Shown here piece after piece: positions 16,132 to 64,000 of a stretch of 64,000 nt of DNA. The position numbers were made by a program, and so were the translations under genes. The DNA is from Candidatus Berkelbacteria bacterium (lineage in GTDB: Bacteria; Patescibacteriota; UBA1384; JACPKC01). The notes beneath the pieces were generated by a model. The model had not been told where the DNA came from. It did no database searches and saw only the letters and a program-made list of their open reading frames with translations. Numbering within the stretch: position 1 is the stretch's first letter; the number at the start of each line of letters is the position of its first letter. The DNA lies in contig JACPKC010000007.1 of the NCBI GenBank assembly GCA_016187225.1, positions 7,654 through 71,653 of the forward strand. Direction: 5' to 3'.

Positions 16132-16243
16132 AAACTTCGCGATTTGAAAGGGTTGCTCCGCGCGGCCGCGCTCCGCAAAATGGTTTGCCGCTTCGCGGCA
16201 AAAAGGCTCACTGGGCAAAAATCAAAGACGGCGGATTTGTTTG
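16125..16243. repeat. Inverted repeat Z flanking the 5' side of the recombinase gene
   Basis: CCGCCAATAGAAACTTCGCGATTTGAAAGGGTTGCTCCGCGCGGCCGCG...GACGGCGGATTTGTT. The reverse complement of 17655-17785 is identical except for an 11-bp insertion (AGGCGGCCGCG) in the right copy. It shares the 7-bp end CCGCCAA with X'. Confidence 0.85.
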
Positions 16244-16262
16244 TTTCGTATCTAAAAACAAT

Positions 16263-41163: not shown

Positions 41164-41389
41164 TCTTGTAAAGACACTGCGGCGTTATCAGCTCGAGAAA
41201 AAATTTGCCAAACAGCTAGCGCTCTTTATTAACAATCCTCGTCACCCATCACTTAATACCGAATTACTTGAACCGAAAAAGCGGGGGCTTTATTCATTAC
41301 GAATCGATCGAAAATTTCGGGCAATCTATATTTTTCTTAGCCGCGATTTAGCGGAAATTATCAGCATCACGCATCACTATAATGATTAA
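41135..41389 (+). CDS. RelE/ParE-superfamily toxin
   Basis: ...KKFAKQLALFINNPRHPSLNTELLEPKKRGLYSLRIDRKFRAIYIF...DLAEIISITHHY matches the RelE fold pattern (Kxx-kQl..l, yelRi..kyRiiY, hHY). The gene is 84 aa and overlaps the antitoxin by 29 nt. Confidence 0.55.
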   Translation: MPSVAHLRPDLVKTLRRYQLEKKFAKQLALFINNPRHPSLNTELLEPKKRGLYSLRIDRKFRAIYIFLSRDLAEIISITHHYND

Positions 41390-42609
41390 TCTCCTCGAAT
41401 GTTTTCCATCTCTGCCCAATTCTTGCCGCATTTAGCCTCGGTCACGATTGGCACGGCTAAATCAATCACCCCTTCCATAATCTTTTGGATCCGACTAATT
41501 ACCGACGACTGGACGTTAATTGATTGCGGCGCCTCGAAAACAAGTTCGTCATGCACCTGAAGAAGCAGGGCCGCATCTTTTTCTTCAATCTTTTGATTGA
41601 TCTCGATCATTGCCAGAGCCATAATTTCAGCTTCAGCGCCCTGAATCGGATGGTTGATCGCAACGCGTTCGGCAAATGAACGCAAGGTTGAATTTGAGCT
41701 GTTGATTTCTGCCAGATAGCGACGACGACCGAGGAGAGTTTCGGCATAGCCGCGCTCCCTCGCCTCGGCCTGCGCAATTTCAACCCATTCGCCAAGTTTA
41801 GGGTAAGTCGCAAAATACTGGTCGATAAACGCCTGGGCTTCCTCGTGACTGATATGCAACGCCTCTGAAAGCCCGTAGGCGCCTTGGCCAAAAAGCACCC
41901 CAAAGTTAATTGCCTTGGCGACCCTTCGATCAACACTCATCTTGGCGGCGGTGGCAGTATGAATATCTTCGCCCTTGAGAAAGGCTTGCTTCAAGTTTTC
42001 ATCACCTGAAAGATGGGCGGCAATGCGCAGTTCAATTTGAGAATAATCGATTGAAAATAGTTTTTTGCCTCGAGGCGCGCTAAAAGCGGCCCGAATCTTA
42101 CGGCCGTCTTCGCTCCGAACGGGAATGTTCTGTAAGTTCGGGTTCCGGCTCGAAAGACGCCCGGCGGCGGTGTCAATTGAGTAGTGCGTATGCAAACGCC
42201 CTTCGGCATCGACGAGTTTTGGAAGCGGTTCTATATACGTAGAGAGAAGTTTTTTCTTTTCGCGATATTCTAGCACAAGCGGAACGATTGGATGCAGGTT
42301 GAAAAGTTTATTCAGTTGAGCGGCGGCTGTCGAGCGACCGGTTTTGGTTTTACGAATATGAATCTCGTCGCCAGAATCAAGATGCAGTTCGGCATAGAGA
42401 ATGCCCGCGAGTTGGCGTGGCGAATCAAGCGTAAACTCGTGGCCAGCCTCACGATAGATTTTTGCTCTCAACACATCCAGCTCGACCGCGTAACTTCTGG
42501 CGAGTTTGTCCAGATAGCGAGTGTCAAGCAAGATGCCGCGAGTCTCCATCGAACGGAGAATCGGCTCAAGCCGAGCCTCTAATTCTTTGATCGATAGTAG
42601 ATTTCTCAA
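41386..42609 (-). CDS. polA: DNA polymerase I, polymerase domain only (family A; no 3'-5' exonuclease domain)
   Basis: Motif A LFSIDYSQIELRIAAHL, motif B RRVAKAINFGVLFGQGAYG and motif C LQVHDELVFEAP are present. The ORF begins at the thumb subdomain with a TTG start that overlaps the stop of the upstream 5'-nuclease ORF (TTGA). Confidence 0.85.
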   Translation of the reverse strand: MRNLLSIKELEARLEPILRSMETRGILLDTRYLDKLARSYAVELDVLRAKIYREAGHEFTLDSPRQLAGILYAELHLDSGDEIHIRKTKTGRSTAAAQLNKLFNLHPIVPLVLEYREKKKLLSTYIEPLPKLVDAEGRLHTHYSIDTAAGRLSSRNPNLQNIPVRSEDGRKIRAAFSAPRGKKLFSIDYSQIELRIAAHLSGDENLKQAFLKGEDIHTATAAKMSVDRRVAKAINFGVLFGQGAYGLSEALHISHEEAQAFIDQYFATYPKLGEWVEIAQAEARERGYAETLLGRRRYLAEINSSNSTLRSFAERVAINHPIQGAEAEIMALAMIEINQKIEEKDAALLLQVHDELVFEAPQSINVQSSVISRIQKIMEGVIDLAVPIVTEAKCGKNWAEMENIRGD

Positions 42610-43529
42610 AACAATGTCTCCTGTTTGGTTGCGCTCTGGCTTTTGGGTAAACGAGTAATTAACGATCTAAAACCCAGTTCGGCAAACATTTTTTTCGCCC
42701 GGTCTTCAGCGTAATGTTTCACGCGACAAGCCGATAGATCAAGTTCAATCGGCACATCGATTCGAATTGTGGCAAGTTTTTTAGAGATAAAAGCGCTATC
42801 GGCAAACTTGCACAGCTTCTCGCGAAGTTTTGCCGACACTTGAGGTATTTCAACTGATTCAAGGTCGCACTGCAAAGACGCATAGAGTTTTTCGATCGAA
42901 CCAAAAGCGTGAATAAGCTGTTTGGCAGTTTTTTCACCCACTCCGGGCACACCCGGGATATTGTCAGACGCATCGCCCCGAAGCGCTTTGTAGTCTACAA
43001 CCGATTCAGGCCCAAAGCCATAATGTTCACGCACTTTCCCGGAATCAATAAGTTCGGCTACTCTGGCGCCACGACTCACGTTGAACACCTTGATCTTTCG
43101 ACTAACAAGTTGATAGGCGTCGTGGTCGCCGGTGACGATGAGCGTCTCGACTTGTCGATTTTCTGCTTGCCGAGCAAGCGTGCCAATCACGTCATCGGCT
43201 TCATATCCAGGCACGCTGAAACCGGGCAGATCAAAGGCCGCCACGACCTCGCGCACGATTGGAAATTGAGTCTTAAGCGCCTCGGGCGCTTCGGGGCGAT
43301 GCGCTTTATAGGCGGCAAAATCTTCGTGGCGAAAAGTTGGCCCGGGCTCATCAAAGGCAACTGCCAAGTAGAAGGGATTGAGAGTTTCGATCACATGCAG
43401 GAGGGTTGAGGCAAATCCATAGACGGCATTCAACGGTTGACCGCGGTGTGTGAGCGGCGGAATTGCATGAAAGCTCCGATGAACCAACGCGTGCGCGTCA
43501 ATCAAAACAAGCTGACGCTTATCTTGGCT
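42606..43529 (-). CDS. 5'-3' exonuclease (FEN-like N-terminal domain of Pol I) as a separate ORF
   Basis: MSQDKRQLVLIDAHALVHRSFHA..., acidic-cluster and HhH motifs. The start is taken at Met74 of the tracked ORF to avoid overlap with valS. Confidence 0.8.
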   Translation of the reverse strand, partial: SQDKRQLVLIDAHALVHRSFHAIPPLTHRGQPLNAVYGFASTLLHVIETLNPFYLAVAFDEPGPTFRHEDFAAYKAHRPEAPEALKTQFPIVREVVAAFDLPGFSVPGYEADDVIGTLARQAENRQVETLIVTGDHDAYQLVSRKIKVFNVSRGARVAELIDSGKVREHYGFGPESVVDYKALRGDASDNIPGVPGVGEKTAKQLIHAFGSIEKLYASLQCDLESVEIPQVSAKLREKLCKFADSAFISKKLATIRIDVPIELDLSACRVKHYAEDRAKKMFAELGFRSLITRLPKSQSATKQETLF

Positions 43530-45738
43530 CATAAATCTCTGGCCAGGATGCAATCGCAAGCAAATCTGAATCACGCTGGTGCGCAGGCAATCTCTGCCAA
43601 ATCGTTTCGGTGATAAAGGGCATAAACGGATGGAGAAGTTTAAGGGAAGTCGCGAGAACGGCGTAAAGAATTTGAGCGGTTGAGTTTCGAGTTGACTCAT
43701 CATCAAGTTGTGCCTTGCTCGCCTCAAGATACACATCGGCAAACTCATGCCAAATGAAATGGTAGATTCGCTCGGCGGCTAAGTGGAGCTGGAAAGTTTC
43801 CATGTCTTGAGTGATTTGATCGACGGCTTGGTTGAGCGCCGCTAGGATGACCCGGTCGGCCTCGGTTTTGGGACGAATGGCATTCTTCTGGCGGCTACTG
43901 TTAACGGCTAGTTGTCCACCATCCGAACTCATCAAAACAAACCGAGCGATGTTCCAAACTTTGTTGGCGAAGTGTTTGTAGGCTTTTACTTTCTCGAGAT
44001 CAAACTTGACGTCGCTACCTGGCGCCACACCGACGATTAGGCTCATTCGAAGCGCGTCTGTGCCGTACTCGTCAATCACTTCAAGCGGGTCAATGCCGTT
44101 GTCAAGTGATTTGCTAAATTTCCGCCCGTCCTTAGCGCGTACGACCCCATGGATGAGAACCGTCCGGAATGGAATCTCACCCAGGAGATAGCCGGACATC
44201 ATAATCATTCTCGACACCCACAAAGTCAGAATTTCATAACCGGGGTTAATCACGCTCGTCGGGTGAAATGTTTTGATATCTTCAGCAGTAGCCGGCCACC
44301 CGAGTGTTGAAAATGTCCAAAGCGCTGAACTAAACCAGGTATCGAGTGTGTCCGGGTCCTGTTCCCAACCCTCGCCGTCAGGCACCTCGACTCCGACGTA
44401 GAGTTCGTCGCCTCGATACCAGACCGGGATACGGTGGCCATAGAGAATTTGACGGCTAACGCACCAATCGCGAAGGTTATCAACCCAGTGAGCATAGATC
44501 TTGCGAAAATGCTCCGGAACAATTTCGATCTCGCCGCTCTGAACAACAGTTTGCATAATCTCTTGTAAGGTTGCCTCACTCCCGCTTTTGAGACCCTGCA
44601 GTTTTGAGTTTGCAAGATGGAACGGCTTGTCAACATCGACGAACCACTGAAGTTTCGGCAAAGGTTCAATTACCCCGCCGGTTCTTTCAGATTTGGCAAG
44701 GCTATGAAGAATCGATGTTTCTTTCTCAATTAGGCCTTCGGCTCGAAGTTTGGCCACTATAAGCTCTCGCGCCTCGATAATTTTCCGACCATTAAATTCA
44801 GGCGAGACGTTCTCGATTTTGGCGGACTCGTTAATCACAGCCTTGAGTGACAAATGATGACGCTCGGCCATCTCCCAGTCGATCATCGAGTGAGCCGGGG
44901 TAACGCCGACGGCGCCAGTGCCAAATTCAGGATCGACGGCTTGATCGGCAATAATCTTGATCTCAAGAGGCAAACCCACAAATCGCACTTTGTGGGTTTG
45001 CCCGACATATTCTTTGTACCGCGCATCGTCAGGATGGACGGCAACGGCAACGTCGCCCAACTTTGTTTCCGGCCGAGTTGTGGCAATGGGAATCGGAAAC
45101 TCTTTTGCATACCGAAAAATGTAAAAAGTGGTCGAGACTTCTTCATAGACAATCTCGTCGTCGGAAAGAGTCGTTTGCCCCTTCGGATCCCAATTAACAA
45201 CGCGGTTGCCGCGATAGATCAGTCCATCGTCATACATCCGCTTGAAAGCAGTCCGAACGGCCCGCTCTCGCTCCTCATCAAGCGTAAAAGCCAAACGCGA
45301 CCAATCGACCGAATCGCCCAGTCGCTTCATCTGTCCGAGAATTTGGCTCTGATTTTCAAGCGCGAATGCCTGAACTCGCTCAAAAAACTCTTCCCGAGAA
45401 AAATCATGCCGCGTTTTCTTTTCTTTTTTATAGAGGTCTTTCTCGTATCGAGCCGTGGTGGCGATCGCGGCGTGATCGGTGCCAGGCGCCCAAAGAGTGC
45501 GATCGCCGCGCAAGCGATGATAACGAACTAACGCATCTTGAAGGCTATGTTCAAAAGCATGACCAATATGGAGCGTGCCAGTCACGTTCGGCGGTGGCAG
45601 AGCAATTGAAAACGTCTTGCCCGTTCGGGATGCTTGCGGCGCAAAAACGCCCCACTCTTCCCAGAGTTTATAGATCTCGCGTTCGTGATTCTCCGCAGTG
45701 TAACGCGGAGGCAGGTGTTCTGTATCGTTCATTGCCAT
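43519..45738 (-). CDS. valS: Valyl-tRNA synthetase (short form lacking the C-terminal coiled-coil)
   Basis: PPPNVTGTLHIGHA (the ValRS-specific HIGH region) and KFSKS (the KMSKS motif). 739 aa. Confidence 0.85.
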   Translation of the reverse strand: MAMNDTEHLPPRYTAENHEREIYKLWEEWGVFAPQASRTGKTFSIALPPPNVTGTLHIGHAFEHSLQDALVRYHRLRGDRTLWAPGTDHAAIATTARYEKDLYKKEKKTRHDFSREEFFERVQAFALENQSQILGQMKRLGDSVDWSRLAFTLDEERERAVRTAFKRMYDDGLIYRGNRVVNWDPKGQTTLSDDEIVYEEVSTTFYIFRYAKEFPIPIATTRPETKLGDVAVAVHPDDARYKEYVGQTHKVRFVGLPLEIKIIADQAVDPEFGTGAVGVTPAHSMIDWEMAERHHLSLKAVINESAKIENVSPEFNGRKIIEARELIVAKLRAEGLIEKETSILHSLAKSERTGGVIEPLPKLQWFVDVDKPFHLANSKLQGLKSGSEATLQEIMQTVVQSGEIEIVPEHFRKIYAHWVDNLRDWCVSRQILYGHRIPVWYRGDELYVGVEVPDGEGWEQDPDTLDTWFSSALWTFSTLGWPATAEDIKTFHPTSVINPGYEILTLWVSRMIMMSGYLLGEIPFRTVLIHGVVRAKDGRKFSKSLDNGIDPLEVIDEYGTDALRMSLIVGVAPGSDVKFDLEKVKAYKHFANKVWNIARFVLMSSDGGQLAVNSSRQKNAIRPKTEADRVILAALNQAVDQITQDMETFQLHLAAERIYHFIWHEFADVYLEASKAQLDDESTRNSTAQILYAVLATSLKLLHPFMPFITETIWQRLPAHQRDSDLLAIASWPEIYEPR

Positions 45739-48626: not shown

Positions 48627-49973
48627 ATGTTTAGGTTATTGATTGATCTGCGCTCAATTTGGAGAAACTTGTCCAAAAGCTTTGTCAGAACTATCCAGGC
48701 TTTTGGGTTATTTTTGCTTATGTCCGGCATTTTCTTAAGCCAAATAGCTTTACCGACCCAATTAGTTCAGGCCGAAACTGCTATCAGCGCCGGCAGTATC
48801 GAAGAGGCTCAACGCCTTGCGACACCTCAAGGGTCTGTAGAATTTTCGAAAACGGTCGATGAAAACAAAAAAACGGTTAAAATTACAGTTAATTTTCGAA
48901 AACCCCAAGCGGGCGACGACATTTCAAAAACGCTTGATGTGACATATAACAATATCGTTGTTGCCGCTTATCATTTTTCAAGTTACAAACTCCTCCTGCA
49001 GGAAAAAAGTGGTAATAATCCTCAATTTCTGCGAGAAGGCGGGCTGGGCGAAGGTCAAATAAATGATCAGACAGCAAATGAAAGAAGTATCTCCAGTATT
49101 CATGATCTTAAATTGCCTTCATCTGGTTCGGAGACATATCGCTATAAGGTGAGCGCTACCTATGTGACTACGTCCAAGATAACTCAAGCTGCGCTTAATC
49201 AGATTACTGACCCATTCATCAGAACCGCCATCAACACGCTTCTGGGTAAAATTCCAGAAAAAATTTTCGGGGAATCGAGTGTTTCTGAAGTCACGCTCTA
49301 TTCAGATGGAACAACGAGCTTGAATGACGCAGAAGGCGACACAAAACCAGTTTTGACTGGCACTGCCAGCTTCGAAAATAACAAAAATCGATACGCCGTC
49401 ACGCTTAATTGGACAGTCGACAAACAACCAGATGACTCACCTCCCTACACTCTTTATCGACGCGTTAAAGAATCGACAGACACTGATTTCAGGAATTGGG
49501 CGTCAGTTTCTTCCCCAAGCGAAACCACCGAAACAGATACCGTTAAAGTCAATCCCGACACTTCTAAAACTGTCGAGTATTCAGTCATGGCTAACTATAC
49601 AGATTCAAGTATTCAATCGAGTCAAAAAACCAGTAATAGCGTCTCTTTTGAACTTAGCGCCGATAAAGACGGCAAACCGGTCGATAAGAACGGCAAGTCG
49701 ATAAAAGGACGGATTCCTGGGGCCAAGGGCGAAACGCCAGACATTACCAAACTCGGCAACCAAGCAAATACCACTGGCGAAAAATCGAGCGGTGTCGGTG
49801 GCGACTGCGATAAGGTGATTGAAAAGATTCAATTTGAAGGTATCAGCGGGCAATTTGCGGAATTTCTTGCTAAACCAATGGCGCAGTTTGCATGTTTACT
49901 TGCCGATCAAGTTTATCAAATGATGCTTAAAATGCCTCTCAAGATTGACGCCTGGATACGCACCACAACATGA
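48627..49973 (+). CDS. Secreted/N-anchored hypothetical surface protein (448 aa)
   Basis: Good RBS (GGAGGGG) and an N-terminal anchor helix. A Thr/Ser-rich ectodomain precedes a C-terminal amphipathic segment. The stop overlaps the next start (ATGA). Confidence 0.55.
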   Translation: MFRLLIDLRSIWRNLSKSFVRTIQAFGLFLLMSGIFLSQIALPTQLVQAETAISAGSIEEAQRLATPQGSVEFSKTVDENKKTVKITVNFRKPQAGDDISKTLDVTYNNIVVAAYHFSSYKLLLQEKSGNNPQFLREGGLGEGQINDQTANERSISSIHDLKLPSSGSETYRYKVSATYVTTSKITQAALNQITDPFIRTAINTLLGKIPEKIFGESSVSEVTLYSDGTTSLNDAEGDTKPVLTGTASFENNKNRYAVTLNWTVDKQPDDSPPYTLYRRVKESTDTDFRNWASVSSPSETTETDTVKVNPDTSKTVEYSVMANYTDSSIQSSQKTSNSVSFELSADKDGKPVDKNGKSIKGRIPGAKGETPDITKLGNQANTTGEKSSGVGGDCDKVIEKIQFEGISGQFAEFLAKPMAQFACLLADQVYQMMLKMPLKIDAWIRTTT

Positions 49974-52216
49974 AAAAATTGATCCTCCTCATTTTGGCAA
50001 TCACCGTCCTGACTATTTTAGAACCAAGTCCTGTCTATGCGCTTAATAGTCTTCAAGATCTTATCCGAAAAGAAGATGGCGGCTTGCGTCAGCTCTGGGA
50101 ATTTTCTCGGTCTTTGATCAATTATCTGATGGTGGCGTTCTTAATGATGGTTGCCTTCGCCAACACGCTCCGCATCAACATCGATACCTATGGCGTTAAA
50201 AAGGTTCTGCCTAATCTGATTATCGCCTTTTTGCTGGCTAATTTTAGTTTGTTTTTAGCTCAAATCGTGCTCGATCTCGCTGATTCCTTAACTTGTTCGT
50301 CATATATGATCGCTAGCAAAGAAGCTTGTGGCACGCAAAGCATGAGCCCAGCCGCTTCAGTGATGGTTGATTTTGCCAGAGGAATGGGCGGGGGCTCAAA
50401 AACAGCGGCTGGGATCATTCTTGGCGTTGGTGGGGTAGGAGGACTCGCGGCAGGCGGTCTGGCCGGGGCCTTAATTAGTTTGATTCCGGGAGTGAATTTT
50501 GCCGCCGGCGCCGCCGCTTTGATAGGCGTGGCTCTCGCTTGCGTAATCATATTCTTACTCGCCCTCGTTCCAACTATTTTGATGCTAGTTCTCTGGGCAA
50601 TGTTTATTATCCGTTTTTACTTTCTTCAATTTTTAATTGCCGCCGCGCCCGCCGCCTTTATCCTAATGGCTTTCCCATTCGGAAAAAATATTTTTAATAA
50701 GTGGCTTAATCAATTTCTAACCTGGGCATTTATGAAGCCGATCGCGTTTCTCCTGATGGCGCTCGGGAGTATTATCATCCAGAATCCGCTCGGCGATGCA
50801 ATGGGCTGGGTGGTGAGTTTTTTTGTGGCGGGCGGAGCGATCATCGCCGCAGTGACCGTGCCCTGGAAACTTGGATCAGCGGTCAATAGCATGATAAGCG
50901 GTTTATTGCGTCGGGCTGGCGCCTTTGGCTGGAATAGTACTCGTTTAGGCTTAGCCGGCGTAGGAAGTAAGCTAAAAGATCGCAAAGATTGGGCGGGTAG
51001 GCTTGGTCGAGGTATGAGTGCGACCGCGGGTGTAATGTCGGCTCCAATAGCAATCAAAGAGGTGCTTGACAAAAATCGCCACGATGCCGAACTCGAAGCC
51101 CGAGCCGAAGGCGCGAGCATGATTGGCAACAAAACTTTGCGGCGGCAAGTTGATGACACGCGCATTGCCGAAAAAGCTAAAGAAATTGAAGATAAATCTG
51201 CGCCCGAGCTGGGCGAAATGCTTGGCGAAGCCGCTAAAAGACACGATAAACATCTGGTCCAAGCAATTCTGCAAAAACTCTACAAAGATGGCAATGCAGA
51301 ATTTACTCTCTATGACATGGTTCAGAATAAGATGCTCGATGAAGAAGGCGCCCTGACCGATCTTGCCAAAGAGATTGGTTTGAGCACAGAAGAAATTACG
51401 GATCTTAAAAAGAAGGGCCCAACCGGCAAAGGTTTGAGCAAGCTCACGATGAGCATGCTTGGCGCTCAATTTGAGGATGTTGAGGTAACAGAATATAAGT
51501 TGGACAAGGATGGCAAGTCAACACAAGAAGAAGTTACAAAGACAAAGATTAAGGACAGCGGTGATTTTGTGGCTCGAATGCGTGAACGCCTTGAAGGGAT
51601 TGCGCTTGGCCAAAACCGCACGCATGAATTTGGAACGATTGAACGTGATCCCAAAAAACCCGGCGATCAATTTCTTAGAAGCGATGCCGAGATTGCTAAA
51701 ATAGGCGCAACTATCGGCAAAGATGACCCTCAAGTCATGCTCGCTAAGGCCGAGGGCGACGCGTGGTTGAAACATCGCGGCGAGGAAAAAGGTCTGCAGG
51801 ATACTGTCCTCCAGCGGATCGAGGACGGCAGTATCAACCTTGGCACTTTTGAGCATATCGATCGATTATCTGGCAAGGTGCGCGGTTTGATTAATAGTGA
51901 TCCCAAAGTAGCGGCCGGGGTTCAGAGAGATTTGACTAAAAAATCACAAGAGATGTTGGCGAAATACAATTCTGCTATGAAGACTGGAGACTTTGGAAAA
52001 GCAAAACAACATTATCTGGCTTATGCGACCGCGGAAGTCGCCAAATTAGGCCTGAAATCAGACTACTCGCGCGAAGAAGTGAACGTGGCCCGAAAAAAAT
52101 TTATCGAGAGATCAGATAAAAGATTTGGTTCTTTACTTAAAGAGACGCCTCAATCTCAAGAACCTCCTATACCACTCGGGGGACCCGCAGATCCCAATAA
52201 TATGCCTAACCCATGA
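49970..52216 (+). CDS. Polytopic membrane protein with a Gly-rich loop region and a long charged C-terminal domain; VirB6/TrbL-like (tentative)
   Basis: Signal peptide, at least 6 TM helices with GxxxG-rich segments, and a 400-aa hydrophilic tail. It sits in an operon that ends in PrgI/VirB4-like genes. The family assignment is inferred from topology and context only. Confidence 0.4.
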   Translation: MKKLILLILAITVLTILEPSPVYALNSLQDLIRKEDGGLRQLWEFSRSLINYLMVAFLMMVAFANTLRINIDTYGVKKVLPNLIIAFLLANFSLFLAQIVLDLADSLTCSSYMIASKEACGTQSMSPAASVMVDFARGMGGGSKTAAGIILGVGGVGGLAAGGLAGALISLIPGVNFAAGAAALIGVALACVIIFLLALVPTILMLVLWAMFIIRFYFLQFLIAAAPAAFILMAFPFGKNIFNKWLNQFLTWAFMKPIAFLLMALGSIIIQNPLGDAMGWVVSFFVAGGAIIAAVTVPWKLGSAVNSMISGLLRRAGAFGWNSTRLGLAGVGSKLKDRKDWAGRLGRGMSATAGVMSAPIAIKEVLDKNRHDAELEARAEGASMIGNKTLRRQVDDTRIAEKAKEIEDKSAPELGEMLGEAAKRHDKHLVQAILQKLYKDGNAEFTLYDMVQNKMLDEEGALTDLAKEIGLSTEEITDLKKKGPTGKGLSKLTMSMLGAQFEDVEVTEYKLDKDGKSTQEEVTKTKIKDSGDFVARMRERLEGIALGQNRTHEFGTIERDPKKPGDQFLRSDAEIAKIGATIGKDDPQVMLAKAEGDAWLKHRGEEKGLQDTVLQRIEDGSINLGTFEHIDRLSGKVRGLINSDPKVAAGVQRDLTKKSQEMLAKYNSAMKTGDFGKAKQHYLAYATAEVAKLGLKSDYSREEVNVARKKFIERSDKRFGSLLKETPQSQEPPIPLGGPADPNNMPNP

Positions 52217-54982: not shown

Positions 54983-55129
54983 GGTAATCGGTCTCCCGGC
55001 GGCGCCGGCGATGGGCCTTAAATACGACGAGTAATGCCCTGGGGTTTGATCCCCAGGGCATTTTTTATCTCAAAGAACTTTCTCACTTACTCGAAAAAAA
55101 TACTTTTTCAACGGTCTCCTCATAGAGAC

Positions 55130-56171: not shown

Positions 56172-56180
56172 TGTTATAAT
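56172..56180 (+). promoter_or_regulatory. Extended -10 promoter (TGtTATAAT) for the downstream operon
   Basis: TGTTATAAT at 56172-56180, RBS AAGGAGGG at 56191-56198 and ATG at 56202. Confidence 0.5.
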
Positions 56181-56201: not shown

Positions 56202-56567
56202 ATGGCAGATCACTTCACCACAAATCCACTTGATCCGGCGGCGTTATTTGAAGAGAATATTTTTGTTCTGCTTGGCTTAAACGATCTACCTGAAGAAAAA
56301 AAGGCGGCTCTGCGCGAACAGATGTTAAGTTCAGTTCGCGACCGCGCTTTGGTTCGCATCTACGATCTCTTGCCCAAAGAAGAACAACAAAAATTCAATG
56401 AGGCACTTGAAAAAGAAGACCAAGAAACCATTCAACAACTTTTGAGTCGCAATAAACTTGACCTGTCTAAATTAATGGTCGAGGAAGCAATTCTTTATAA
56501 ATTGCGCCTAACGCAAGCAAGCGAACAACTTGAGGATGCCGCCCATGCTGAAAAATCAGCCACCTAA
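56202..56567 (+). CDS. Small acidic hypothetical protein (first gene of the operon)
   Basis: ATG with a strong SD. 121 aa, helical and acidic. Confidence 0.55.
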   Translation: MADHFTTNPLDPAALFEENIFVLLGLNDLPEEKKAALREQMLSSVRDRALVRIYDLLPKEEQQKFNEALEKEDQETIQQLLSRNKLDLSKLMVEEAILYKLRLTQASEQLEDAAHAEKSAT

Positions 56568-59500
56568 TAGCGTCAACTCACCGGATTCAGACGAAGAAGG
56601 TTCAAACGAATCTCCTGAAAATGATTCGCGCGACTCGGCTGATGAAGTTATCGAAGAAATCTCGCAAGAGCTTAATAAACGTGAAAAGGAAATTAGTGAT
56701 CTTGTCAAAGAATTTTGTCGATTAGATCGCGAACGCCGGCAAGCGCGTTTTGGCGGCGGCGACCAAGCGGTCGGCAAGTTGTGGAATCCAAAAGAAATCG
56801 CTCGCCGCTGGGGCAACCTGCGCGATTCACTCCACCGCGTGGGCGCGCGCGTTTTTAATGAGAAATCAGGCACATTCGCTTTTGACAAAAACAAGTATGA
56901 GAAACGAGTTTTAGCCGCCCTTGGAGAATCAGCGGCTGGCTTTATAGGCGCTGGCGCAATTTTATTCTCCGGTTTTGGAAGTTATGTGGCGCCCACTCTG
57001 TTTGGGCACTTCTTAAAAGAGGGCATCGACGGCCTGGCAAAAAGCACTCAATTTATACTGGGCAAAAAACAGTGGAACGCCGAGATGGTGACTCAAGTTG
57101 CGTTCGACCTAAAAATCAAAAAATTTCTTGAAAGTGGCAAGGAATATGATGAGGGGCAATTTACTCAAGCCAAAGTCGAACTTATCGATATGGATGCCGA
57201 AATTGCCAGCCTTCAAGCCAAACACCATGCCTCGGATAAAAAATGGACCTTTTGGCGCAAGCTGACTTCAGGCTTTGCAACTGGCGGGGTCGCGTATGGC
57301 GTCACGGGTGTTCCGCTTGGCGTCCACAATTTCGATCCAGGCATTGGTGATGGTTTTACCAATGTAGTCGACAATACGTCGCAACATGGAATAATTGGAT
57401 CCTTGCGCAAATTCCATCGCGTCCTCTGGGGAGCGCAAGGTGGAGAATTTGCGTATGGGCCTGGAGAGTACGAAAGTATAAAAAAAATCGTTGACGATCA
57501 TGGCGGAGTACTCGAAAAAGTAACACACTTTCTAGGAGAGACCCGCCATACACTTGGCCACGGCTTGCCGTCGGGCCTGAAAAACTCGCTTTGGATCGCC
57601 GCTGGATATTTGGGGATTCAAAGTATCTGGGATGGCGCGCAAGGCAGAAATGCGGGCACGCAAACTCGCAAAAGGATTGAAAAAATGATCCACGATGATT
57701 ACGTGTCGTCGGCGCCACCAACTGAAGCGGGGCAAGCGCCAACGCCCGAGCCTCCATTGTCTCTAGGAACGCCAGGCGACGAATCACCGCCTTCGCCTGA
57801 ACCCAAACTACCCTCTGTTCCATCTCCTCAACCACCCGAGGACGCGGTGCAACGAACAAGTAAAGAGGAGAAAAAGATTAAAGACTTTCAATTGGCTTTT
57901 AGTCAACCGTGGATTCTGCGAAAAGATGGTCTACCTCTGGATATTGTAGGCAAAAAAATTAAGGTGATTTTCGGGCGAGGAAATGTCAAGAATGTCAAGA
58001 GTGATATTTCAGCCTTCACGACAGTCCACGACCAAGACACTCGTCGCGGCCGCGTAGTAGTCTATTTGTCTAACGAGATAAAAGAGAAGCTAACAGTCCA
58101 TCTGGATAAACGCGGTGTTAGTGGAGTATTCAATGATGAAACTCGAGTTGCAGACATAGAGCTTTTCGTCGCTGGCATTCGCGAGGATCAAGGGCAGGCG
58201 CAGTTGGAAGTTAGCTTTCAACGTCCCTCAACACCATCAACCCCAACCCAATCGGAACCTCAAGTTTCTATGCCAGCGCCAATCCAGGAACAGGAAACGG
58301 AGATAAGGGAAGGGATTGAGGGGTTGGAGTGGCGAGAGAGGCTGACTTTTGAACAATTTAAGCAAATTCTTGACAACGCGACGGCGCTTTATCGGCACGA
58401 AATTGAAAACGGAAAACCGATTTTTGAGGGCGTAGAAAAGATTGACCAATTGCAACCGGTTGCAGAAATTACCCGCGACGACGCGTTGATTGTTTTCCCT
58501 AAAGATGTGCAAGTCTTCACTCTTGGCGACCTGCACGGCGATACACGCGTCCTGCATTCTTTTCTGAAAAAAACAGACCTTGTCGCAAAAATGCAACGCG
58601 GGGAAAAGGTGGCGCTTCTCGTTCTCGGCGACATGCTGGATCGCGGCGCTCAAAGTTCAGAACTCTTGGCGACCTTGCTCTCGCTCAAGCTTGCATTCCC
58701 AAAACAAGTAGTTCTCCTGCGCGGCGATCACGAGGATGTTGCAATAAATTGTGATTTTGTACAAAATGCTCGGAATTCCTACCACACAAAGACATTTGGT
58801 GCGCATGAGATACTAGGTAACACCGAGACTGAGTGGGAAAAAAAGTTTGGTGCAAAGAATACAGAGATAATTAAAAACACTCACACGCTTCTCTACGGAG
58901 GCCTCCCCTATGCCGCGGTGCTACCAAACGGATTTGTGGCAACCCATGCCGGTGTGCCTTATGAACTGAATAGATTAGAGGCATGGACGACACCCAACGA
59001 AAAACGGCAGACACAATTCATGTGGGGCGATTATACTGATAGAGAATTACTATCGGGTCTTGGTGATGCTGATAACGCTTCAGTATTGACCCGAGAAAAT
59101 CCCGGCCGCGTCTACATGTTTGGCAATCAATTAATCCGGCATTTGAAAGAAAAATTCGGCATTCAGGGTCTGGTCCGCGGCCACGAGCATGACCGACAAC
59201 CATTTCGGAATCAAGATAGCACTGTCTTTACCCTCGTCTCTTCAGGAGAGGTGGTGAGCGACACTAATAGACTCCGCTATGGCTTATTGCAAAGCGATGG
59301 TACGTTCTCCGCATACCCCTTGGAGTTTAAGCCCGAATACCCCAAGGGCGTGTTCCTTGCCGCGACTCAATCTCGGGAGCAAGGTCAGTCAAAACTTATT
59401 GATCGCTACTACGAGCTTGTCAGCACTTTGAAGAATGACTATCTCAATAAAATTGTAACGGTTGAGGTGCGCCGATCAAGGCTTGACGGGTATCTTAATT

Positions 59501-60027
59501 ACCGAATTCCTCAAATTCAAGACTCGCTAAACGATGAAAATATTGTTCTCGAGATGCCTCAAAAAGAACGCAATCGAATGCGCGCGGAGCTTGACCAGAA
59601 AAACAAAAGCGAAGCCCAACTTAAAATTTCTGAAATAAAATTTGTTCTCGGTAAAGATTCCAAGCCAAAGATTAAGATTGAACTCCAAATCCCCGAACAT
59701 GAGCCCGAACCAAGTCCTGAACAACAAAAACCTTTGCTTTCAAATTTCTCTGCTCAAGAGAATGAGATTCTCGATCAGTTGGTCGACCGAGCCAGCGATC
59801 CAGACTCGTACATATTAGTTTTAAGCGAGGCAGAGCTTGAACTTTGCAGAAAACTCGTTCTTCAAATCCCTTGGCAAGTAATCCGCAAGGGCAAGCGAAG
59901 AACTTCCAAAGAGAATGAGGCTTGCGACAAGCTTCAGGTAGCTCTTGAGTCGCCGGAGGGATGTATCCAAAACTCTCAAGAATTTGCCGAGAATATTACT
60001 TGTATGAGGTTGTTCATTGAGGATTAG
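56530..60027 (+). CDS. Giant membrane-associated protein with a C-terminal PPP-family (calcineurin-like) Ser/Thr phosphatase / metallophosphoesterase domain
   Basis: Motifs in order: GDLHGD (GDxHG), GDMLDRG (GDxxDRG), RGDHE (a GNHE variant with N to D), HAG, and RGHEH. Two hydrophobic helices lie in the N-terminal third, with acidic low-complexity regions. 1165 aa. Confidence 0.7.
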   Translation: MRMPPMLKNQPPNSVNSPDSDEEGSNESPENDSRDSADEVIEEISQELNKREKEISDLVKEFCRLDRERRQARFGGGDQAVGKLWNPKEIARRWGNLRDSLHRVGARVFNEKSGTFAFDKNKYEKRVLAALGESAAGFIGAGAILFSGFGSYVAPTLFGHFLKEGIDGLAKSTQFILGKKQWNAEMVTQVAFDLKIKKFLESGKEYDEGQFTQAKVELIDMDAEIASLQAKHHASDKKWTFWRKLTSGFATGGVAYGVTGVPLGVHNFDPGIGDGFTNVVDNTSQHGIIGSLRKFHRVLWGAQGGEFAYGPGEYESIKKIVDDHGGVLEKVTHFLGETRHTLGHGLPSGLKNSLWIAAGYLGIQSIWDGAQGRNAGTQTRKRIEKMIHDDYVSSAPPTEAGQAPTPEPPLSLGTPGDESPPSPEPKLPSVPSPQPPEDAVQRTSKEEKKIKDFQLAFSQPWILRKDGLPLDIVGKKIKVIFGRGNVKNVKSDISAFTTVHDQDTRRGRVVVYLSNEIKEKLTVHLDKRGVSGVFNDETRVADIELFVAGIREDQGQAQLEVSFQRPSTPSTPTQSEPQVSMPAPIQEQETEIREGIEGLEWRERLTFEQFKQILDNATALYRHEIENGKPIFEGVEKIDQLQPVAEITRDDALIVFPKDVQVFTLGDLHGDTRVLHSFLKKTDLVAKMQRGEKVALLVLGDMLDRGAQSSELLATLLSLKLAFPKQVVLLRGDHEDVAINCDFVQNARNSYHTKTFGAHEILGNTETEWEKKFGAKNTEIIKNTHTLLYGGLPYAAVLPNGFVATHAGVPYELNRLEAWTTPNEKRQTQFMWGDYTDRELLSGLGDADNASVLTRENPGRVYMFGNQLIRHLKEKFGIQGLVRGHEHDRQPFRNQDSTVFTLVSSGEVVSDTNRLRYGLLQSDGTFSAYPLEFKPEYPKGVFLAATQSREQGQSKLIDRYYELVSTLKNDYLNKIVTVEVRRSRLDGYLNYRIPQIQDSLNDENIVLEMPQKERNRMRAELDQKNKSEAQLKISEIKFVLGKDSKPKIKIELQIPEHEPEPSPEQQKPLLSNFSAQENEILDQLVDRASDPDSYILVLSEAELELCRKLVLQIPWQVIRKGKRRTSKENEACDKLQVALESPEGCIQNSQEFAENITCMRLFIED

Positions 60028-60225: not shown

Positions 60226-62844
60226 GTGGAACAGCAGGGGTCGCGCAAAGAGACGCTGGCTGAATTGGTTGGTCTGGAAATCCAGTCGCTCAATCAAGCA
60301 CCAACCAAGCCATCCGCCGTAAAGCGGGTTGGGTTAGAGCAGGGTGAGATTGTTTCGCCTCGCTTGAGCGAGACTCGCAATGACAAGAGCGACAAAATTT
60401 TTCGCAATAATAGAGAAAGCGGTGTGCCTCTTTCCGTTGAACACGCCGAGCGATTGGAGCAGGTTCGAGAACAAATTCAAGACCTGAAAACGATCGCCGA
60501 ATGCGCGCGCCAACTGACCGTCCGCTTAAGCGAACTCGCGGCTCAACAAAAGCCCGACTTGCCAGCCGAGGTCGCAAAAATATGGGCAAATGCCAGCAGT
60601 CAAATCGCCAGGTATTTGAATCAGCCGGTCCAGATCGGCGCTGGCGCAACGCCGCACTCGCTCGAGGAAGCGCAAGAACAGTTTGAACACTGGATCAGCT
60701 TGTTTTGCGAAAATGCCGCTGGTCCCGACGGAACTGGCCTTCAAGATGATCCCGACCGTCTCCGAAGCTTCCAGGGAAAACTCGAAAATATCGAACCGCT
60801 TGCAAGCACACTCGCCAAAAACGGGCGCGCGCTCGTGGCGCAGAAAGAACTTACTTTAGAGTATCTCCAAGCAAGCGCCCAGGAAACTTATGCCAAGGCG
60901 CATAAAAATACCGAGCGACTCAAGGCGATCGATCAAGCGGCGCGGCCTCTTCAGGCGCATTGGCTTGAGGCTCTTCAGCAGGAAAAACGCGAACTCGAAC
61001 AGTTGAAGGCTGATCTCAAAAAAATCAGCGGGGAACACCAGCTTTCAGCAACGCTCTTGGCAAAGACAGATGAAGGCATTCAAATTCTCAACCATCTTTC
61101 CACCGAACCGCTCGAACAAGCGCAGATTTCAATTGCCGAATGGGTGGGCAAATTTCGCGAGGCTGAAGATTTTACCGCTGAAAAAGTCCGCGAGCGGATT
61201 CAAACCGACCTCAAAACTCCATTTCAAAAACTTGCCGGACGCATTGAGGAATTGAGGCGCGCGTATGATCCCGACCGCTTAAAAAAAATTTATGAGGCCG
61301 AGCTAAAAAAAGAGCGCGGGGTAGTGATTGAGGAGGCGCAGAATCTTTTAGGCGCGCTTAAAGCCCGAACGAGCGTGCTCACCAACTTGCGGCGCGAAAA
61401 ACTCGGCTCAAAGCCAGACGTGCGGTTCTTTGGCGAAATTGCCAAACAAGTCAACACCGCGATTACCGCTTTGAGCGAGGCCGAGATGAGCTTGCTCGAA
61501 GCGATCAGCGCGCTCAAAGATGCTCCGCTCGTCTCCAAAAACGCCGCGAGTTTTACCGAAAGCCAGGCGAAGGCTAAAAAATTACTCATCCAAACTCAAA
61601 ATTTTGCCGCTCGCAACAAAATTGAGGAACTTTTGGCCACGAGCTGGAAAACCAGCCTGACGCCGCTCAAGGAAGTTCTTGAAACCGCCCGCAAGCGGGA
61701 GATAAGCGCCAAAGCGCTGGCGGATAAGTACAGCCGACATCCTGGCTTCGATACCGCGCTTGCCGCTGACCTGAAAATTAAAACTCAAGCGTTAACCACT
61801 GCTTGCGCCCGAGCAACGGAATTTATCACCGATCACGAAAAGCAGTCAGGCGGGGCCAAGGAGCTGACTGCCCAGCGCGAGCGGCTTATGCAAACAATTC
61901 AAGCGGCGGCGCAAGCGCTTGAACCCTACACCGATGAGACGCGCCTGATGGCCAAGCTTGAAGCCAACAAAGAGCGAACTGAAGAACGACGAGTTGAAGA
62001 GGAACGGCAGGCGCGCGAAGAAGAGGCAAGGCGACGCTCAACACTCTTGCCGCGTCTCGTTACTCTCACGCATGAGGCAAGCCATCTAGCGAGTCAATTT
62101 CGCCGGGCGCTCGGTTATGCCACCCAACTCGAGCAGTACGACAGCTCGCGCGCGCTTGAGTTATACCAAAAGCTCACTGCGCTCGCTGAAACGAATTTCA
62201 ACTCTCAAGTCAGCGCCCTTCCACCGCTTGGCGAGATCATCTCGCAAGGCAAATTTCTCACGGAGCTAAAAACGCGTTTTGAATCTGCTGAACATTCAAC
62301 GAATGAAATTGAAATCGAGATTAGCCAGATCGAAGTCGCCTTGGGTGAAAACGGCCGCGCGAGCGAGCTTTTCCGCGAATTTAATGATTTGGAAAATAGA
62401 TATCCACTGACCGCCTATCGAACGCGCGGTCAATTAAGTCATCTGCTAACCGTCCGAGTTGATCAGTTTGAGCAAAAACTTTTTCGTAGGCGGACGCCAG
62501 AACTCGACATCTTTCGCGAAGAGGTTGTGTGGTTGCGTGAAGAGATAGAGCGTTTTCAAAACGAACCACCGCAAAAAGCGACAGAGCGAGGCGCCAAATT
62601 AGAGGCGCGCCTGAAAGCGCTTGGCGAACGCTTGGCGTCACTCGAAGAACGAACTGAAAATGAGTTTGTTGAGCGCGAGGCTGTCTCAACTCAAGAAAAC
62701 CGCGCTTTGCGGATGAAGCTTCAGGCGCTTTTGCGCGATCAATCGGACTATCAAAGTTATCCAATCAAAATCGACCAGGAAGCGAATCATCCTCAACCCC
62801 AAGTATCTCAAGACGCGAGTGAGACAATTCGGATTCATCGCTAA
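60226..62844 (+). CDS. Giant coiled-coil hypothetical protein (872 aa), GTG start
   Basis: GTG at 60226 preceded by TAGGAGGGAGA. The sequence is almost entirely heptad-like, with E/K/R/Q/L-rich helices and no TM segment. Confidence 0.6.
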   Translation: MEQQGSRKETLAELVGLEIQSLNQAPTKPSAVKRVGLEQGEIVSPRLSETRNDKSDKIFRNNRESGVPLSVEHAERLEQVREQIQDLKTIAECARQLTVRLSELAAQQKPDLPAEVAKIWANASSQIARYLNQPVQIGAGATPHSLEEAQEQFEHWISLFCENAAGPDGTGLQDDPDRLRSFQGKLENIEPLASTLAKNGRALVAQKELTLEYLQASAQETYAKAHKNTERLKAIDQAARPLQAHWLEALQQEKRELEQLKADLKKISGEHQLSATLLAKTDEGIQILNHLSTEPLEQAQISIAEWVGKFREAEDFTAEKVRERIQTDLKTPFQKLAGRIEELRRAYDPDRLKKIYEAELKKERGVVIEEAQNLLGALKARTSVLTNLRREKLGSKPDVRFFGEIAKQVNTAITALSEAEMSLLEAISALKDAPLVSKNAASFTESQAKAKKLLIQTQNFAARNKIEELLATSWKTSLTPLKEVLETARKREISAKALADKYSRHPGFDTALAADLKIKTQALTTACARATEFITDHEKQSGGAKELTAQRERLMQTIQAAAQALEPYTDETRLMAKLEANKERTEERRVEEERQAREEEARRRSTLLPRLVTLTHEASHLASQFRRALGYATQLEQYDSSRALELYQKLTALAETNFNSQVSALPPLGEIISQGKFLTELKTRFESAEHSTNEIEIEISQIEVALGENGRASELFREFNDLENRYPLTAYRTRGQLSHLLTVRVDQFEQKLFRRRTPELDIFREEVVWLREEIERFQNEPPQKATERGAKLEARLKALGERLASLEERTENEFVEREAVSTQENRALRMKLQALLRDQSDYQSYPIKIDQEANHPQPQVSQDASETIRIHR

Positions 62845-62884: not shown

Positions 62885-63364
62885 ATGCGGTATCGCGTTC
62901 CGCAGAATATTGATATGGAGGATCGGATTATTGGGCCGCTGACAATGGCTCAATTTGTCTATCTCATGCTCGGCGGCATGATTATTTATGTTTCCTATCT
63001 GCTTTTCATCCCACCGGTCTTTTTCGCAATCGCTTTTGGAGTCGGCATCTTAACCCTCTCAATGACTTTTCTTAAAATCCAGGACCAGCCTTTCCCAAAA
63101 TTCATCGCGGCGACCCTTTTGTATTTGGTCAAACCCAAACAACGGACTTGGCAAAAAGACCCAACGCTCCAGCACATGAAGGTGATTGAAAAAACCGCAA
63201 CCACGCCTGAACAAAAATCTGTCCCGGGGCAAACCGTGACTAAAATCGAGCTCAATGATCTATCGCAACTTTTAGATACCGGAGGCAGAATAGAGCCGCA
63301 AAAACTTCAAACCCAGCCTGCTCTGGAGGAAAAATCCAAAAAAATCGACACGAGTTGGAAATAA
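62885..63364 (+). CDS. PrgI/VirB3-like small membrane protein of Gram-positive-type type IV secretion systems
   Basis: MRYRVPQNIDMEDRIIGPLTMAQFVYLMLGG followed by two TM helices matches the PrgI-family N-terminal signature. It sits immediately upstream of a VirB4-like ORF, as in prgI-prgJ. Confidence 0.5.
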   Translation: MRYRVPQNIDMEDRIIGPLTMAQFVYLMLGGMIIYVSYLLFIPPVFFAIAFGVGILTLSMTFLKIQDQPFPKFIAATLLYLVKPKQRTWQKDPTLQHMKVIEKTATTPEQKSVPGQTVTKIELNDLSQLLDTGGRIEPQKLQTQPALEEKSKKIDTSWK

Positions 63365-63369
63365 TCATT

Positions 63370-64000
63370 ATGTTCCGCACTCGCGCCAAACGCACCCAAA
63401 AAAGCACCCAAGCCTATTTAGATATCGCCGCGATTAAAGATGGGGTTGTGGTTTTGCAAAATGGCGGCTTGCGCGCCGTGTTGGCGGTGACGTCAGTTAA
63501 CTTCGCCTTAAAATCGCCCGAGGAGCAAGAGGATATCGTCTTGCGCTATCAAGGTTTTTTGAACTCTCTCCACTATCCTTTGCAAATTATGATGCAATCG
63601 CGCAAGTTAGATCTGGCCGACTACCTAACGCGCCTGCGCCAGCGAGGCGAAACAGAAGGCAACGAACAGATCAAAAATCAGATCGCGGCCTACACTGATT
63701 TTATGGAAAAACTTCTCGCGGTCGCCAACATTATGGATAAACGCTTTTATGTGGTGGTCAGTTACGATCCGGAGTCGCTCAAATCCAAGAGCTTTCTCGA
63801 CAAACTTCTCCATCCGTCCAAGCAAATTACAATTAGCATGACGGAGCAGGAATTTCAGCGTTACACAACTCAACTCAATGAACGAGTCAACTTGATTGGT
63901 TCAGGACTCGCTTCAATCGGACTCAAGGCCGCAATGCTCACCACTAAACAACTGATCGAGCTTTACTACTCAACATATAATCCCGAAGAAGCGGTTAAAG
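63370..64000 (+). CDS. VirB4/PrgJ/TraE-like type IV secretion ATPase, N-terminal 210 aa (partial; continues beyond the window end)
   Basis: My own translation from ATG 63370 gives MFRTRAKRTQKSTQAYLDIAAIKDGVVVLQNGGLRAVLAVTSVNFALKSPEEQEDIVLRYQGFLNSLHYPLQIMMQSRKLDLADYL... This is the characteristic N-domain pattern of Gram-positive VirB4 homologues. The frame is open to the last base of the window. Confidence 0.55.
   Translation, partial: MFRTRAKRTQKSTQAYLDIAAIKDGVVVLQNGGLRAVLAVTSVNFALKSPEEQEDIVLRYQGFLNSLHYPLQIMMQSRKLDLADYLTRLRQRGETEGNEQIKNQIAAYTDFMEKLLAVANIMDKRFYVVVSYDPESLKSKSFLDKLLHPSKQITISMTEQEFQRYTTQLNERVNLIGSGLASIGLKAAMLTTKQLIELYYSTYNPEEAVK

Follow-up and report, generated by a model that had tools for sequence, protein, structure and literature searches.

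What might a PPP-family phosphatase be doing in the midst of a type IV secretion system (T4SS) operon, carried on a membrane-associated protein of more than a thousand residues? The question is raised by a 64-kb stretch of the chromosome of an ultrasmall bacterium, a Candidatus Berkelbacteria (contig JACPKC010000007.1, positions 7,654 to 71,653; this whole stretch is called the window below), and in particular by the gene for protein MBI2589853.1 near its 3' end. Much of bacterial diversity belongs to the Patescibacteria (Candidate Phyla Radiation, CPR), whose cells live fastened to those of other bacteria. Published accounts describe their T4SS as chromosomal, widespread, devoid of relaxases and essential in the one species tested, with a role that is "completely unknown" and effector delivery merely speculated upon (PMC11665869, PMC12102498).

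The answer proposed here starts from the company that the phosphatase keeps. The gene appears to be one of a set of cassettes in which a small DUF5663 gene precedes a conserved module joined to a swappable enzyme. We tentatively favor, at somewhat less than an even chance, the view that its product is a chaperone-partnered T4SS substrate or effector. It is rather unlikely, though worth stating, that DUF5663 plus module cassettes are the first identifiable substrate family of Patescibacteria T4SS, a polymorphic effector system reprogramming the host bacterium.

A carrier module, its partner gene and its payloads

The reading frame is uninterrupted on the + strand from TTG to TAG (1165 codons). 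The 1165-aa open reading frame described in an earlier, sequence-only reading of this DNA is real and equals MBI2589853.1, which carries only automatic annotation at NCBI, though the product is 1160 aa from the likelier start. A GAGGA Shine-Dalgarno sequence sits 8 nt 5' of ATG 56545, the start chosen by both the NCBI and the Logan gene calls, and by these signals that ATG is a more probable start than TTG 56530. Because the identical protein occurs on contigs from two independent SRA runs as well as under the NCBI accession, neither the fusion nor the GDHE codon discussed below is an assembly artifact.

Exhaustive HMMER searching of 1.84 billion representative proteins returned 2476 matches at E<1e-3, with only the protein itself below 1e-30, and these matches split in two. 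Most cover the phosphatase only, and about a dozen (P0002, P0026, P0030, P0038, P0052, P0062, P0087, P0093, P0128, P0130, P0132 and P0133) align only to aa ~40-400, the N-terminal carrier module. All named module carriers are Candidatus Berkelbacteria. Scans for related loci gave one from genomes and seven from metagenomes, and a word-indexed homolog search with the module alignment found no match. The module matched no Pfam family, and it has no relative in the PDB by profile or by fold (best Foldseek E=0.012, TM<0.25). By sequence comparison it appears to be a previously undescribed family specific to the Berkelbacteria lineage.

The module begins with a lead helix that ends in an RxRF/YG motif, followed by a Lys-rich stretch, a 33-40-aa Gly/Ala-rich hydrophobic segment and long helices; a region with a small beta element carries two invariant motifs, GVPLG (aa 260-264) and an HxLGHGLP-like one (aa 340-347). 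In the AlphaFold 2 (AF2) model the hydrophobic segment forms a helix, a turn and a second helix, and it may cross the membrane as one transmembrane (TM) helix or form a membrane hairpin. The family conserves another two Gly-rich segments, which in this protein stay under the usual TM thresholds. Glycine-zipper enrichment was considered for the module and was not above that of composition-matched shuffles. Membrane association, as the sequence-only reading proposed, is upheld; of the two hydrophobic N-terminal helices it described, only the Gly-rich segment at aa 126-162 is convincingly hydrophobic on the Kyte-Doolittle scale. The N-terminus is acidic over aa 1-50, and the linkers at aa 395-445 and 565-590 are Pro-rich.

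The partner gene encodes a soluble, helical protein recognized as DUF5663; on the Logan-called gene the precomputed Pfam hit is unmarked. The gene is served by an extended -10 element of its own (TGTTATAAT, 56172-56180) and by a strong ribosome-binding site (AAAGGAGGG). Two genes upstream, after the gene for a 503-aa protein, a strong terminator-like hairpin (55033-55062) ends the unit. The DUF5663 stop codon and the start of the large gene overlap by 23 nt, the corresponding overlaps being ~29-38 nt at loci L007 and L008, and the two genes are apparently translationally coupled. A DUF5663 gene lies directly 5' of the module gene in the window and in L001, L004, L007, L008, L009 (twice) and L011-L016, that is, at every module locus having upstream sequence, and the pairing is obligate. 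The copies (~110-140 aa, soluble, helical) share 26-41% identity between loci, and the window copy is 30-37% identical to the gene directly 5' of each of the other module genes. No PDB match was found for DUF5663, and searching on the family name found no literature. L009 also holds a third, stand-alone DUF5663-like copy (L009:15817-16227) and a 253-aa protein with a DUF5663-like C-terminal part (L009:16841-17602); these extra domains suggest that the partner family has diversified.

Beyond a Pro/Gly/Tyr-rich linker the module carries at least four payload types: PPP, GT9, an unclassified domain, and an HExxH/protease region with a different Metallophos domain. The commonest is the unclassified domain of ~450 aa (P0026, P0052, P0093 and others). 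Its identity as a GT-A glycosyltransferase was entertained and set aside: hhalign to the GT2 N-terminus was in register and weak (probability 2%), and neither Pfam nor PDB gave a match. The payload of P0087 and of the L006 protein is GT9 (Pfam 1e-15), and that of P0132 combines an HExxH region, with a Tox-MPTase3 match (E=0.0024) below threshold, and the different Metallophos.

The clearest view of such exchange comes from L009 (GCA_964481135.1), which holds two tandem cassettes sharing a 1,688-bp block that is 100% identical (L009:4569-6256 and L009:9574-11261). Each copy runs from 87 bp of leader through the DUF5663 gene to codon 420 of the large gene. Identity stops in the Gly/Pro linker, after which one copy continues into the unclassified domain and the other into the protease and Metallophos. 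Perfect duplication with differing C-termini therefore points to a cassette that was duplicated recently and exchanged its payload at the linker, the recombination pattern seen at polymorphic toxin and effector loci.

Pairing of module and phosphatase recurs independently and in varied arrangements, because P0011 shows it in reversed order and three other PPP-bearing proteins show it with divergent modules. In P0011 (761 aa, L005) a local hidden Markov model (HMM) places the PPP domain N-terminal and the module C-terminal; this protein comes from a single 2.7-kb metagenomic contig, and its final ~50 residues have the look of a low-complexity tail created by a frameshift. The N-terminal regions of P0103, P0016 and P0037 (1062-1356 aa) are divergent module homologs (hhalign 91.6%, E=8e-7, 183 columns). 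In L001, a stand-alone canonical PPP gene lies ~1.9 kb 5' of a DUF5663-module-PrgI series, with 27% identity to aa 599-905 (E=3e-25).

The phosphatase domain and its motif III

That the payload in the window is a PPP-type phosphatase is confirmed by several comparisons. Pfam Metallophos (PF00149), which the sequence-only reading had suggested as a check, matches aa 665-888 over profile positions 6-190/191 with E=1.8e-14 and 55.1 bits against a cut-off of 21.5, and Metallophos is the only domain that the Pfam scan found in the protein. The five motifs that it had listed are all present and in order: GDLHGD (666-671), GDMLDRG (700-706), RGDHE (731-735), HAG (806-808) and RGHEH (883-887). Motifs I and II (GDxHG, GDxxDRG) have canonical spacing; the metal-ligand histidines H806 and H885 are present, and the general acid His734 is retained along with the D704/R705 pair. 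Among 72 aligned related domains the Asp/His of motif I, Asp/Arg of II, His of III and His of IV are invariant and the His of motif V occurs in 71; the domain carries every invariant residue.

Fold comparison leads the same way. When aa 440-1165 were modeled by AF2 with 32 homologs, the predicted local distance difference test (pLDDT) score was 80-96 over aa ~600-940. All of the model's best 50 Foldseek matches in the PDB are eukaryotic-type PPPs (PP1/PPZ1/PP2A/PP5/calcineurin, E~1e-15), with a target-normalized TM-score of 0.7-0.81 for chains consisting of the catalytic subunit only and lower values for longer fused chains. Searching PDB sequences with phmmer gave BSU1, PP1, rdgC and calcineurin as best matches (E 1e-10 to 1e-6). 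The domain may thus be taken, on motifs and model together, as a genuine PPP-type fold with a complete motif set apart from one Asn-to-Asp change and with predicted activity, and it groups with the eukaryotic-type PP1/PP2A/PP5/calcineurin enzymes as far as sequence and modeled fold can tell. Neither a wrong motif order or spacing nor a generic non-catalytic fold was found.

The domain is central (aa ~600-945), followed by an orphan tail of ~220 aa, and does not form the C-terminal third of the protein as had been supposed. Lead-in helices at its N-terminus belong to it, as does an insertion of ~45 aa that follows motif III. The exhaustive HMMER search detected no homologs of the tail (aa 946-1165) and none of the middle region between the linkers. 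Like eukaryotic PPPs and the ~300-aa prokaryotic homologs, the domain has the common fold and motif order, including W-x-D and R-x-H-E; it differs from the eukaryotic enzymes by GDHE for GNHE, HAG for HGG, the ~45-aa insertion and a shifted Arg loop. Identity to solved PPPs is ~18-20%, and the domain, unlike theirs, is embedded in a 1160-aa protein with a membrane-associated module. The closest stand-alone homologs (P0003-P0009, ~300 aa) are 26-30% identical, with a near-identical LKLAFPKQVVLLRG(N/D)HE block. The same PPP subfamily also occurs inside giant metagenomic proteins of 3000-5200 aa (P0012, P0017, P0057, P0097 and others).

Could the substrate be something other than phosphoprotein, such as Ap4A or RNA ends with 2',3'-cyclic or 3'-phosphates? 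Over motifs I-II, NCBIfam shows a weak resemblance to ApaH (E=1.8e-4) that points that way, as do PHROG matches that include an 'RNA ligase' family containing a phosphatase domain, and lambda phosphatase cleaves cyclic nucleotides, its physiological substrates being unknown (PMC2190708). We regard this as very improbable. The ApaH model NF001204 scores 20.9 bits against a cut-off of 176, and PrpA and PrpB (NF008516, NF007425) score 18.1 against 326 and 14.5 against 332, each over ~75 residues, covering motifs I-II only. Similarity to PP1/PP2A/PP5/calcineurin is full-length and includes the LxLKxxFPxxVxLLRG.HE block and the W-x-D motif, and neither lambda phosphatase nor ApaH structures appear among the top 50 fold matches. 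Lambda phosphatase, PrpA, PrpB and ApaH have the metallophosphoesterase superfamily and the first three motifs in common with the domain and are absent from its top fold matches. The Ap4A-like hydrolase of the sequence-only reading and a PrpA-like classification can accordingly be dropped, together with the lambda-phosphatase class.

Motif III deserves separate treatment. The PROSITE-type pattern is [LIVMN]-[KR]-G-N-H-E. The protein reads LRGDHE at 730-735, departing from that pattern and keeping His734; the underlying change of AAT to GAT is a single transition. Asp in place of the near-invariant Asn, as the sequence-only reading described it, is indeed encoded by a GAT codon, yet it is far from unique: 122 related domains with recognizable motifs I-III, taken from the top matches, divide into 108 GNHE, 6 GNHD and 8 GDHE. 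By neighbor-joining the nearest neighbors of each GDHE domain are GNHE domains (GDHE-bearing P0019 lies at distance 0.31 from GNHE-bearing P0055), and no clade smaller than the whole tree takes in every GDHE domain. The idea of a unique or clade-defining change is thereby rejected; the state is polyphyletic, in ~6% of relatives. Because these 8 domains are scattered among GNHE relatives, Asn-to-Asp is best seen as a recurrent variant in otherwise intact sites. The change from HGG to HAG is independent of it.

Such a variant invites a further alternative, in which the domain is impaired or re-tuned: a weak or pseudo-phosphatase that binds phospho-ligands, or an enzyme for another metal or substrate, either being compatible with localization in the epibiont or in its host. 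Biochemistry lends this some weight, for yeast Dbr1 N85D keeps ~5% activity (PMC5113202) and conservative replacements of CthPnkp Asn263 are inactive (PMC2190708). The LRGNHE signature is broken, HAG stands for HGG, the loop with the PP1 R221-equivalent Arg is shifted, the ~45-aa insertion follows motif III, and the alignment of related domains holds no column that co-varies with the substitution and might compensate for it. The biochemical precedents and this lack of compensation count against an active effector enzyme. On the other side, Asp is a competent metal ligand, and the recurrence of GDHE among GNHE relatives with the other ligands invariant argues that selection has kept a working metal site. 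The missing R221-equivalent Arg was also considered as a sign of inactivity; it is not diagnostic because the Arg loop varies across the whole subfamily. On computational grounds we consider impairment or re-tuning quite unlikely.

The secretion operon and the placement of the payload

The window is chromosomal (it carries TsaD, LeuRS, a split Pol I, PNPase, FtsK, RecA and others), and from 47.5 kb on all genes lie on the + strand (Table 1). The sequence-only reading placed the gene in a T4SS-like operon. PrgI, in the window, agrees with this, and the TraC-like gene, VirB4 and the SLT hydrolase were confirmed only by reading the contig past the window end (L002). By gene content the cluster matches a Patescibacteria MPF-FATA-like T4SS operon, and the 748-aa polytopic protein, which has no Pfam match, is a candidate VirB6/PrgH analogue in it. 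Neither the window nor the L002 extension showed a relaxase, and no Ser/Thr kinase was found in the window.

Table 1. Features of the MBI2589853.1 gene and its surroundings, in window coordinates
Feature	Position	Strand	Basis or remark
FemAB, then anchored 448-aa protein	from 47.5 kb	+	first genes of the same-strand run
Polytopic 748-aa protein	49970-52216	+	at least 6 hydrophobic segments in first 300 aa (TM scan)
366-aa protein, then signal-peptide 503-aa protein	after 748-aa gene	+	
Two-TM protein, 250-278 aa	55275/55359-56111	+	N-terminal signal/TM, C-terminal TM
DUF5663 gene, 121 aa, soluble, helical	56202-56567	+	Pfam E=2.6e-4; local HMM E=4.7e-45
Large gene (MBI2589853.1)	56545-60027 (56530-60027 if TTG)	+	NCBI name 'metallophosphoesterase [Candidatus Berkelbacteria bacterium]'
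N-terminal carrier module, aa ~40-400 (~360 aa)	56647-57729	+	family alignment (~340 positions); local HMM E=6e-106
Hydrophobic segment, aa 126-162 (RVLAALGESAAGFIGAGAILFSGFGSYVAPTLFGHFL)	56905-57015	+	Gly-rich; Kyte-Doolittle maximum 1.7
Pro-rich linker	57712-57864	+	14 Pro in aa 401-450; equivalent linker is payload switch point in relatives
Middle region	57865-58323	+	beta-rich low-confidence model, pLDDT <50; then second Pro/Thr/Ser linker
PPP (PP1/PP2A/calcineurin-type) phosphatase domain, aa 599-945	58324-59364	+	Pfam, PDB phmmer, AF2, Foldseek
Motif III, RGDHE	58720-58734	+	D733 = GAT 58726-58728, in place of metal-ligand Asn of GNHE
C-terminal tail, aa 946-1165 (~220 aa)	59365-60024	+	helical in low-confidence model
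872-aa soluble helical protein	60226-62844	+	Glu/Lys/Ala/Leu-rich, coiled-coil-like by eye; between large gene and PrgI
PrgI (VirB3-like)	62885-63364	+	Pfam E=2.8e-8, 34.6 bits vs 27; two-TM hydrophobic stretch
TraC-like gene (N-terminal part of split VirB4), 5' part	63370-64000	+	translation; runs past window end
VirB4 ATPase	beyond window, same contig (L002)	+	TraG P-loop 2e-26, AAA_10
TM-anchored SLT hydrolase, then TM-anchored 348-aa protein	beyond window, L002	+	SLT 3e-23

Association with such systems extends to related loci. Cassettes in L009 and L010 lie 5' of PrgI, TraC-like, VirB4 and SLT/CHAP genes, and in L004 and L007 the PPP-bearing protein is followed by one gene and then a VirD4/TraG-like ATPase. 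T4SS adjacency holds for all four phosphatase-bearing members with enough flank to judge, in addition to the stand-alone gene of L001. For the module family as a whole the adjacency is partial. The module as a strictly T4SS-linked element was accordingly rejected, GT-payload paralogs being located elsewhere.

Which way the payload faces bears on every reading. The protein has no signal peptide, and GT9 needs a cytoplasmic nucleotide-sugar, so the payload side should face a cytoplasm, as expected for T4SS substrates. Since the payload can stand on either side of the module (P0011), both module ends would face a cytoplasm. The Gly-rich segment would then be either a hairpin or an element inserted only under certain conditions, and not a plain N-in/C-out anchor. 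The missing signal peptide and the sister GT9 also make exposure of the phosphatase at the surface unlikely. The secreted or surface effector suggested by the sequence-only reading thus survives in its effector half, strengthened by modular payload-swapping and the partner gene, and is unlikely in its surface half.

If the protein is an effector, DUF5663 would bind and stabilize the module, possibly shielding its Gly-rich hydrophobic segment, and the module would dock the protein at the membrane beside the MPF-FATA-like T4SS. The T4SS could then deliver it into the host bacterium, or insert it into the host-cell membrane, where the phosphatase would strip phosphate from host Ser/Thr (possibly Tyr) phosphoproteins. 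Of these steps, the chaperone role, export through the T4SS, the target in the host and a working GDHE site are all inferred. Such an effector is favored by the swapping of payloads, by the partner gene and by the lack of any kinase in the window.

It is also conceivable that the enzyme never leaves the epibiont. The module would in that case tether it at the cell's own membrane, where it would act in cis, dephosphorylating components of the T4SS or of envelope assembly or controlling the system in some other way, as an accessory or regulatory subunit rather than a substrate. Several observations weigh against delivery, most of them in favor of such a tether. Loci L011, L012, L013 and L015 (GT9 or unclassified payloads, 10-kb flanks) have no T4SS gene, their neighbors being dnaG-rpoD, an Asp/Lys-tRNA synthetase or a TPR-GT2 gene, and L006 has none on its downstream side. 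Because these paralogs sit in housekeeping or glycosyltransferase neighborhoods, the module could simply be a membrane tether that is not exclusively T4SS-linked. Every payload type is an enzyme that normally works on the cytoplasmic face of the membrane; glycosyltransferases and a phosphatase are not classical toxins. The hydrophobic segment has a Lys-rich N-side flank (KWKKW family consensus) typical of a stable anchor, and the gene sits among structural T4SS genes. None of the known T4SS signals (BID, XVIPCD, E-block, Arg-rich tail) was recognized, Pfam reporting Metallophos only, and no T4SS coupling protein (T4CP) gene was seen in the 54-kb part of the contig examined. No immunity-like gene is evident 3' of the large gene in the loci compared: the downstream genes are large and differ (872 aa in the window; 454, 525 and 311 aa in L004, L007 and L008; 624 and 772 aa in L009), and BLAST found no homology among them across loci. 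The module model itself is of only moderate confidence (pLDDT 67.6).

Against residence, tandem cassettes with identical N-termini and swapped catalytic domains would be rare for structural or regulatory subunits, the 64-kb window offers no Ser/Thr kinase, obligate pairing with a small gene is more in keeping with a chaperone and its substrate, and the accessible portion of the published Patescibacteria T4SS survey names no such component (PMC12102498). The non-T4SS paralogs, non-toxin payloads and lack of a recognized secretion signal or immunity gene nevertheless favor a tether. A resident enzyme, the main rival, seems to us unlikely on balance; delivery by the T4SS remains our tentative preference.

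Other genes of the block vary between loci. The two-TM protein has a Pro/Ala-rich tail, with local GC up to 0.63; in L009 and L001 its homologs likewise open the block, L004 has genes of the same two-TM architecture at that position, and L007 and L008 have genes of similar size there. The 872-aa protein has no homolog in other loci (BLAST, 1e-3); the L009 gene at its position (772 aa) has weak module similarity (E=4e-10). Elsewhere in the window, 785-12192 forms a surface-polysaccharide/envelope cluster with a PMT_2 mannosyltransferase-like gene, two Wzy_C O-antigen-ligase-like genes, two GT1/GT4 genes, a Mur ligase and a flippase. Low GC (0.377 at 14-16 kb) beside a large serine recombinase (16077-17834; Resolvase, Recombinase and Zn ribbon) suggests that an element may have integrated at 14000-17834. 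On the - strand, separate reading frames encode the two parts of DNA polymerase I, a 5'-3' exonuclease (42606-43748) and a PolA polymerase domain (41386-42609).

Significance and comparison with known systems

The module, its DUF5663 partner, the payload polymorphism and their embedding in a Patescibacteria T4SS are not found in the searchable literature; taken by itself, the phosphatase domain adds one more member to a known family, and in its subfamily GDHE is ordinary. Interest in the locus rests mainly on testable T4SS cargo candidates, and the active-site substitution adds little (PMC11665869). What the cassettes offer is a candidate cargo or accessory family recognizable by sequence (DUF5663 partner, conserved module, swappable enzyme), and hence defined proteins for experimentalists. 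If the effector-system reading is true, the phosphatase would be an inter-bacterial phospho-signaling effector and the membrane-inserting module, held in solution by its small chaperone, a means of carrying enzymes across or into the host membrane, among them the PPP phosphatase, glycosyltransferases, or a protease with a phosphoesterase. A resident tethered phosphatase would instead point to phospho-regulation at the T4SS of otherwise minimal genomes. For PPP enzymology, GDHE is a recurrent natural state of the active site that should be useful in studies of metal selectivity.

The nearest secretion machinery on record is the Patescibacteria MPF-FATA-like T4SS of Quinonero-Coronel et al. 2025 (PMC12102498). 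In the accessible parts of that survey these systems have the same PrgI/VirB3, TrsD/TraC-like, VirB4 and VirB1-like SLT components and, like the window cluster, are chromosomal and relaxase-less; those parts make no mention of phosphatases, DUF5663, the module or candidate substrates.

Phosphatases delivered by a T4SS do have a precedent. The sequence-only reading knew of no described T4SS component with such a domain, and here it overlooked the Legionella Dot/Icm effectors WipA and WipB, which are PPP-fold T4SS effectors; export of WipA needs the small IcmSW chaperones (PMC5454105, PMC5572681). TM domains, moreover, occur in about one-third of T4SS effectors (PMC12981334). WipA and WipB resemble the Berkelbacteria protein as metallophosphoesterases with DXH, GDXXDR and GNHE motifs, and in combining a phosphatase payload, a helical accessory region and a chaperone logic. 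They differ in belonging to a type IVB system of a Gram-negative pathogen with eukaryotic targets, and they have neither the module nor DUF5663. The likeness is drawn from their descriptions, and the Berkelbacteria protein is a putative substrate.

Other secretion systems offer parallels in gene organization. LXG toxins of type VII secretion systems (T7SS) have small helical partners. Eag chaperones shield the N-terminal TM domains of type VI secretion system (T6SS) effectors (PMC7773334). The T6SS prePAAR/Eag and T7SS LXG systems resemble the Berkelbacteria cassettes in that a linker joins a conserved N-terminal domain to C-terminal enzymes that can be swapped, in having a small gene directly upstream, and in duplicated cassettes whose N-termini are identical; in contrast to them, the cassettes show no homology of sequence or fold, are associated with a T4SS and have no immunity genes in sight. 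Their payloads differ in kind as well, being nucleases and pore-formers in the T6SS and T7SS families and a phosphatase and glycosyltransferase-like enzymes in Berkelbacteria.

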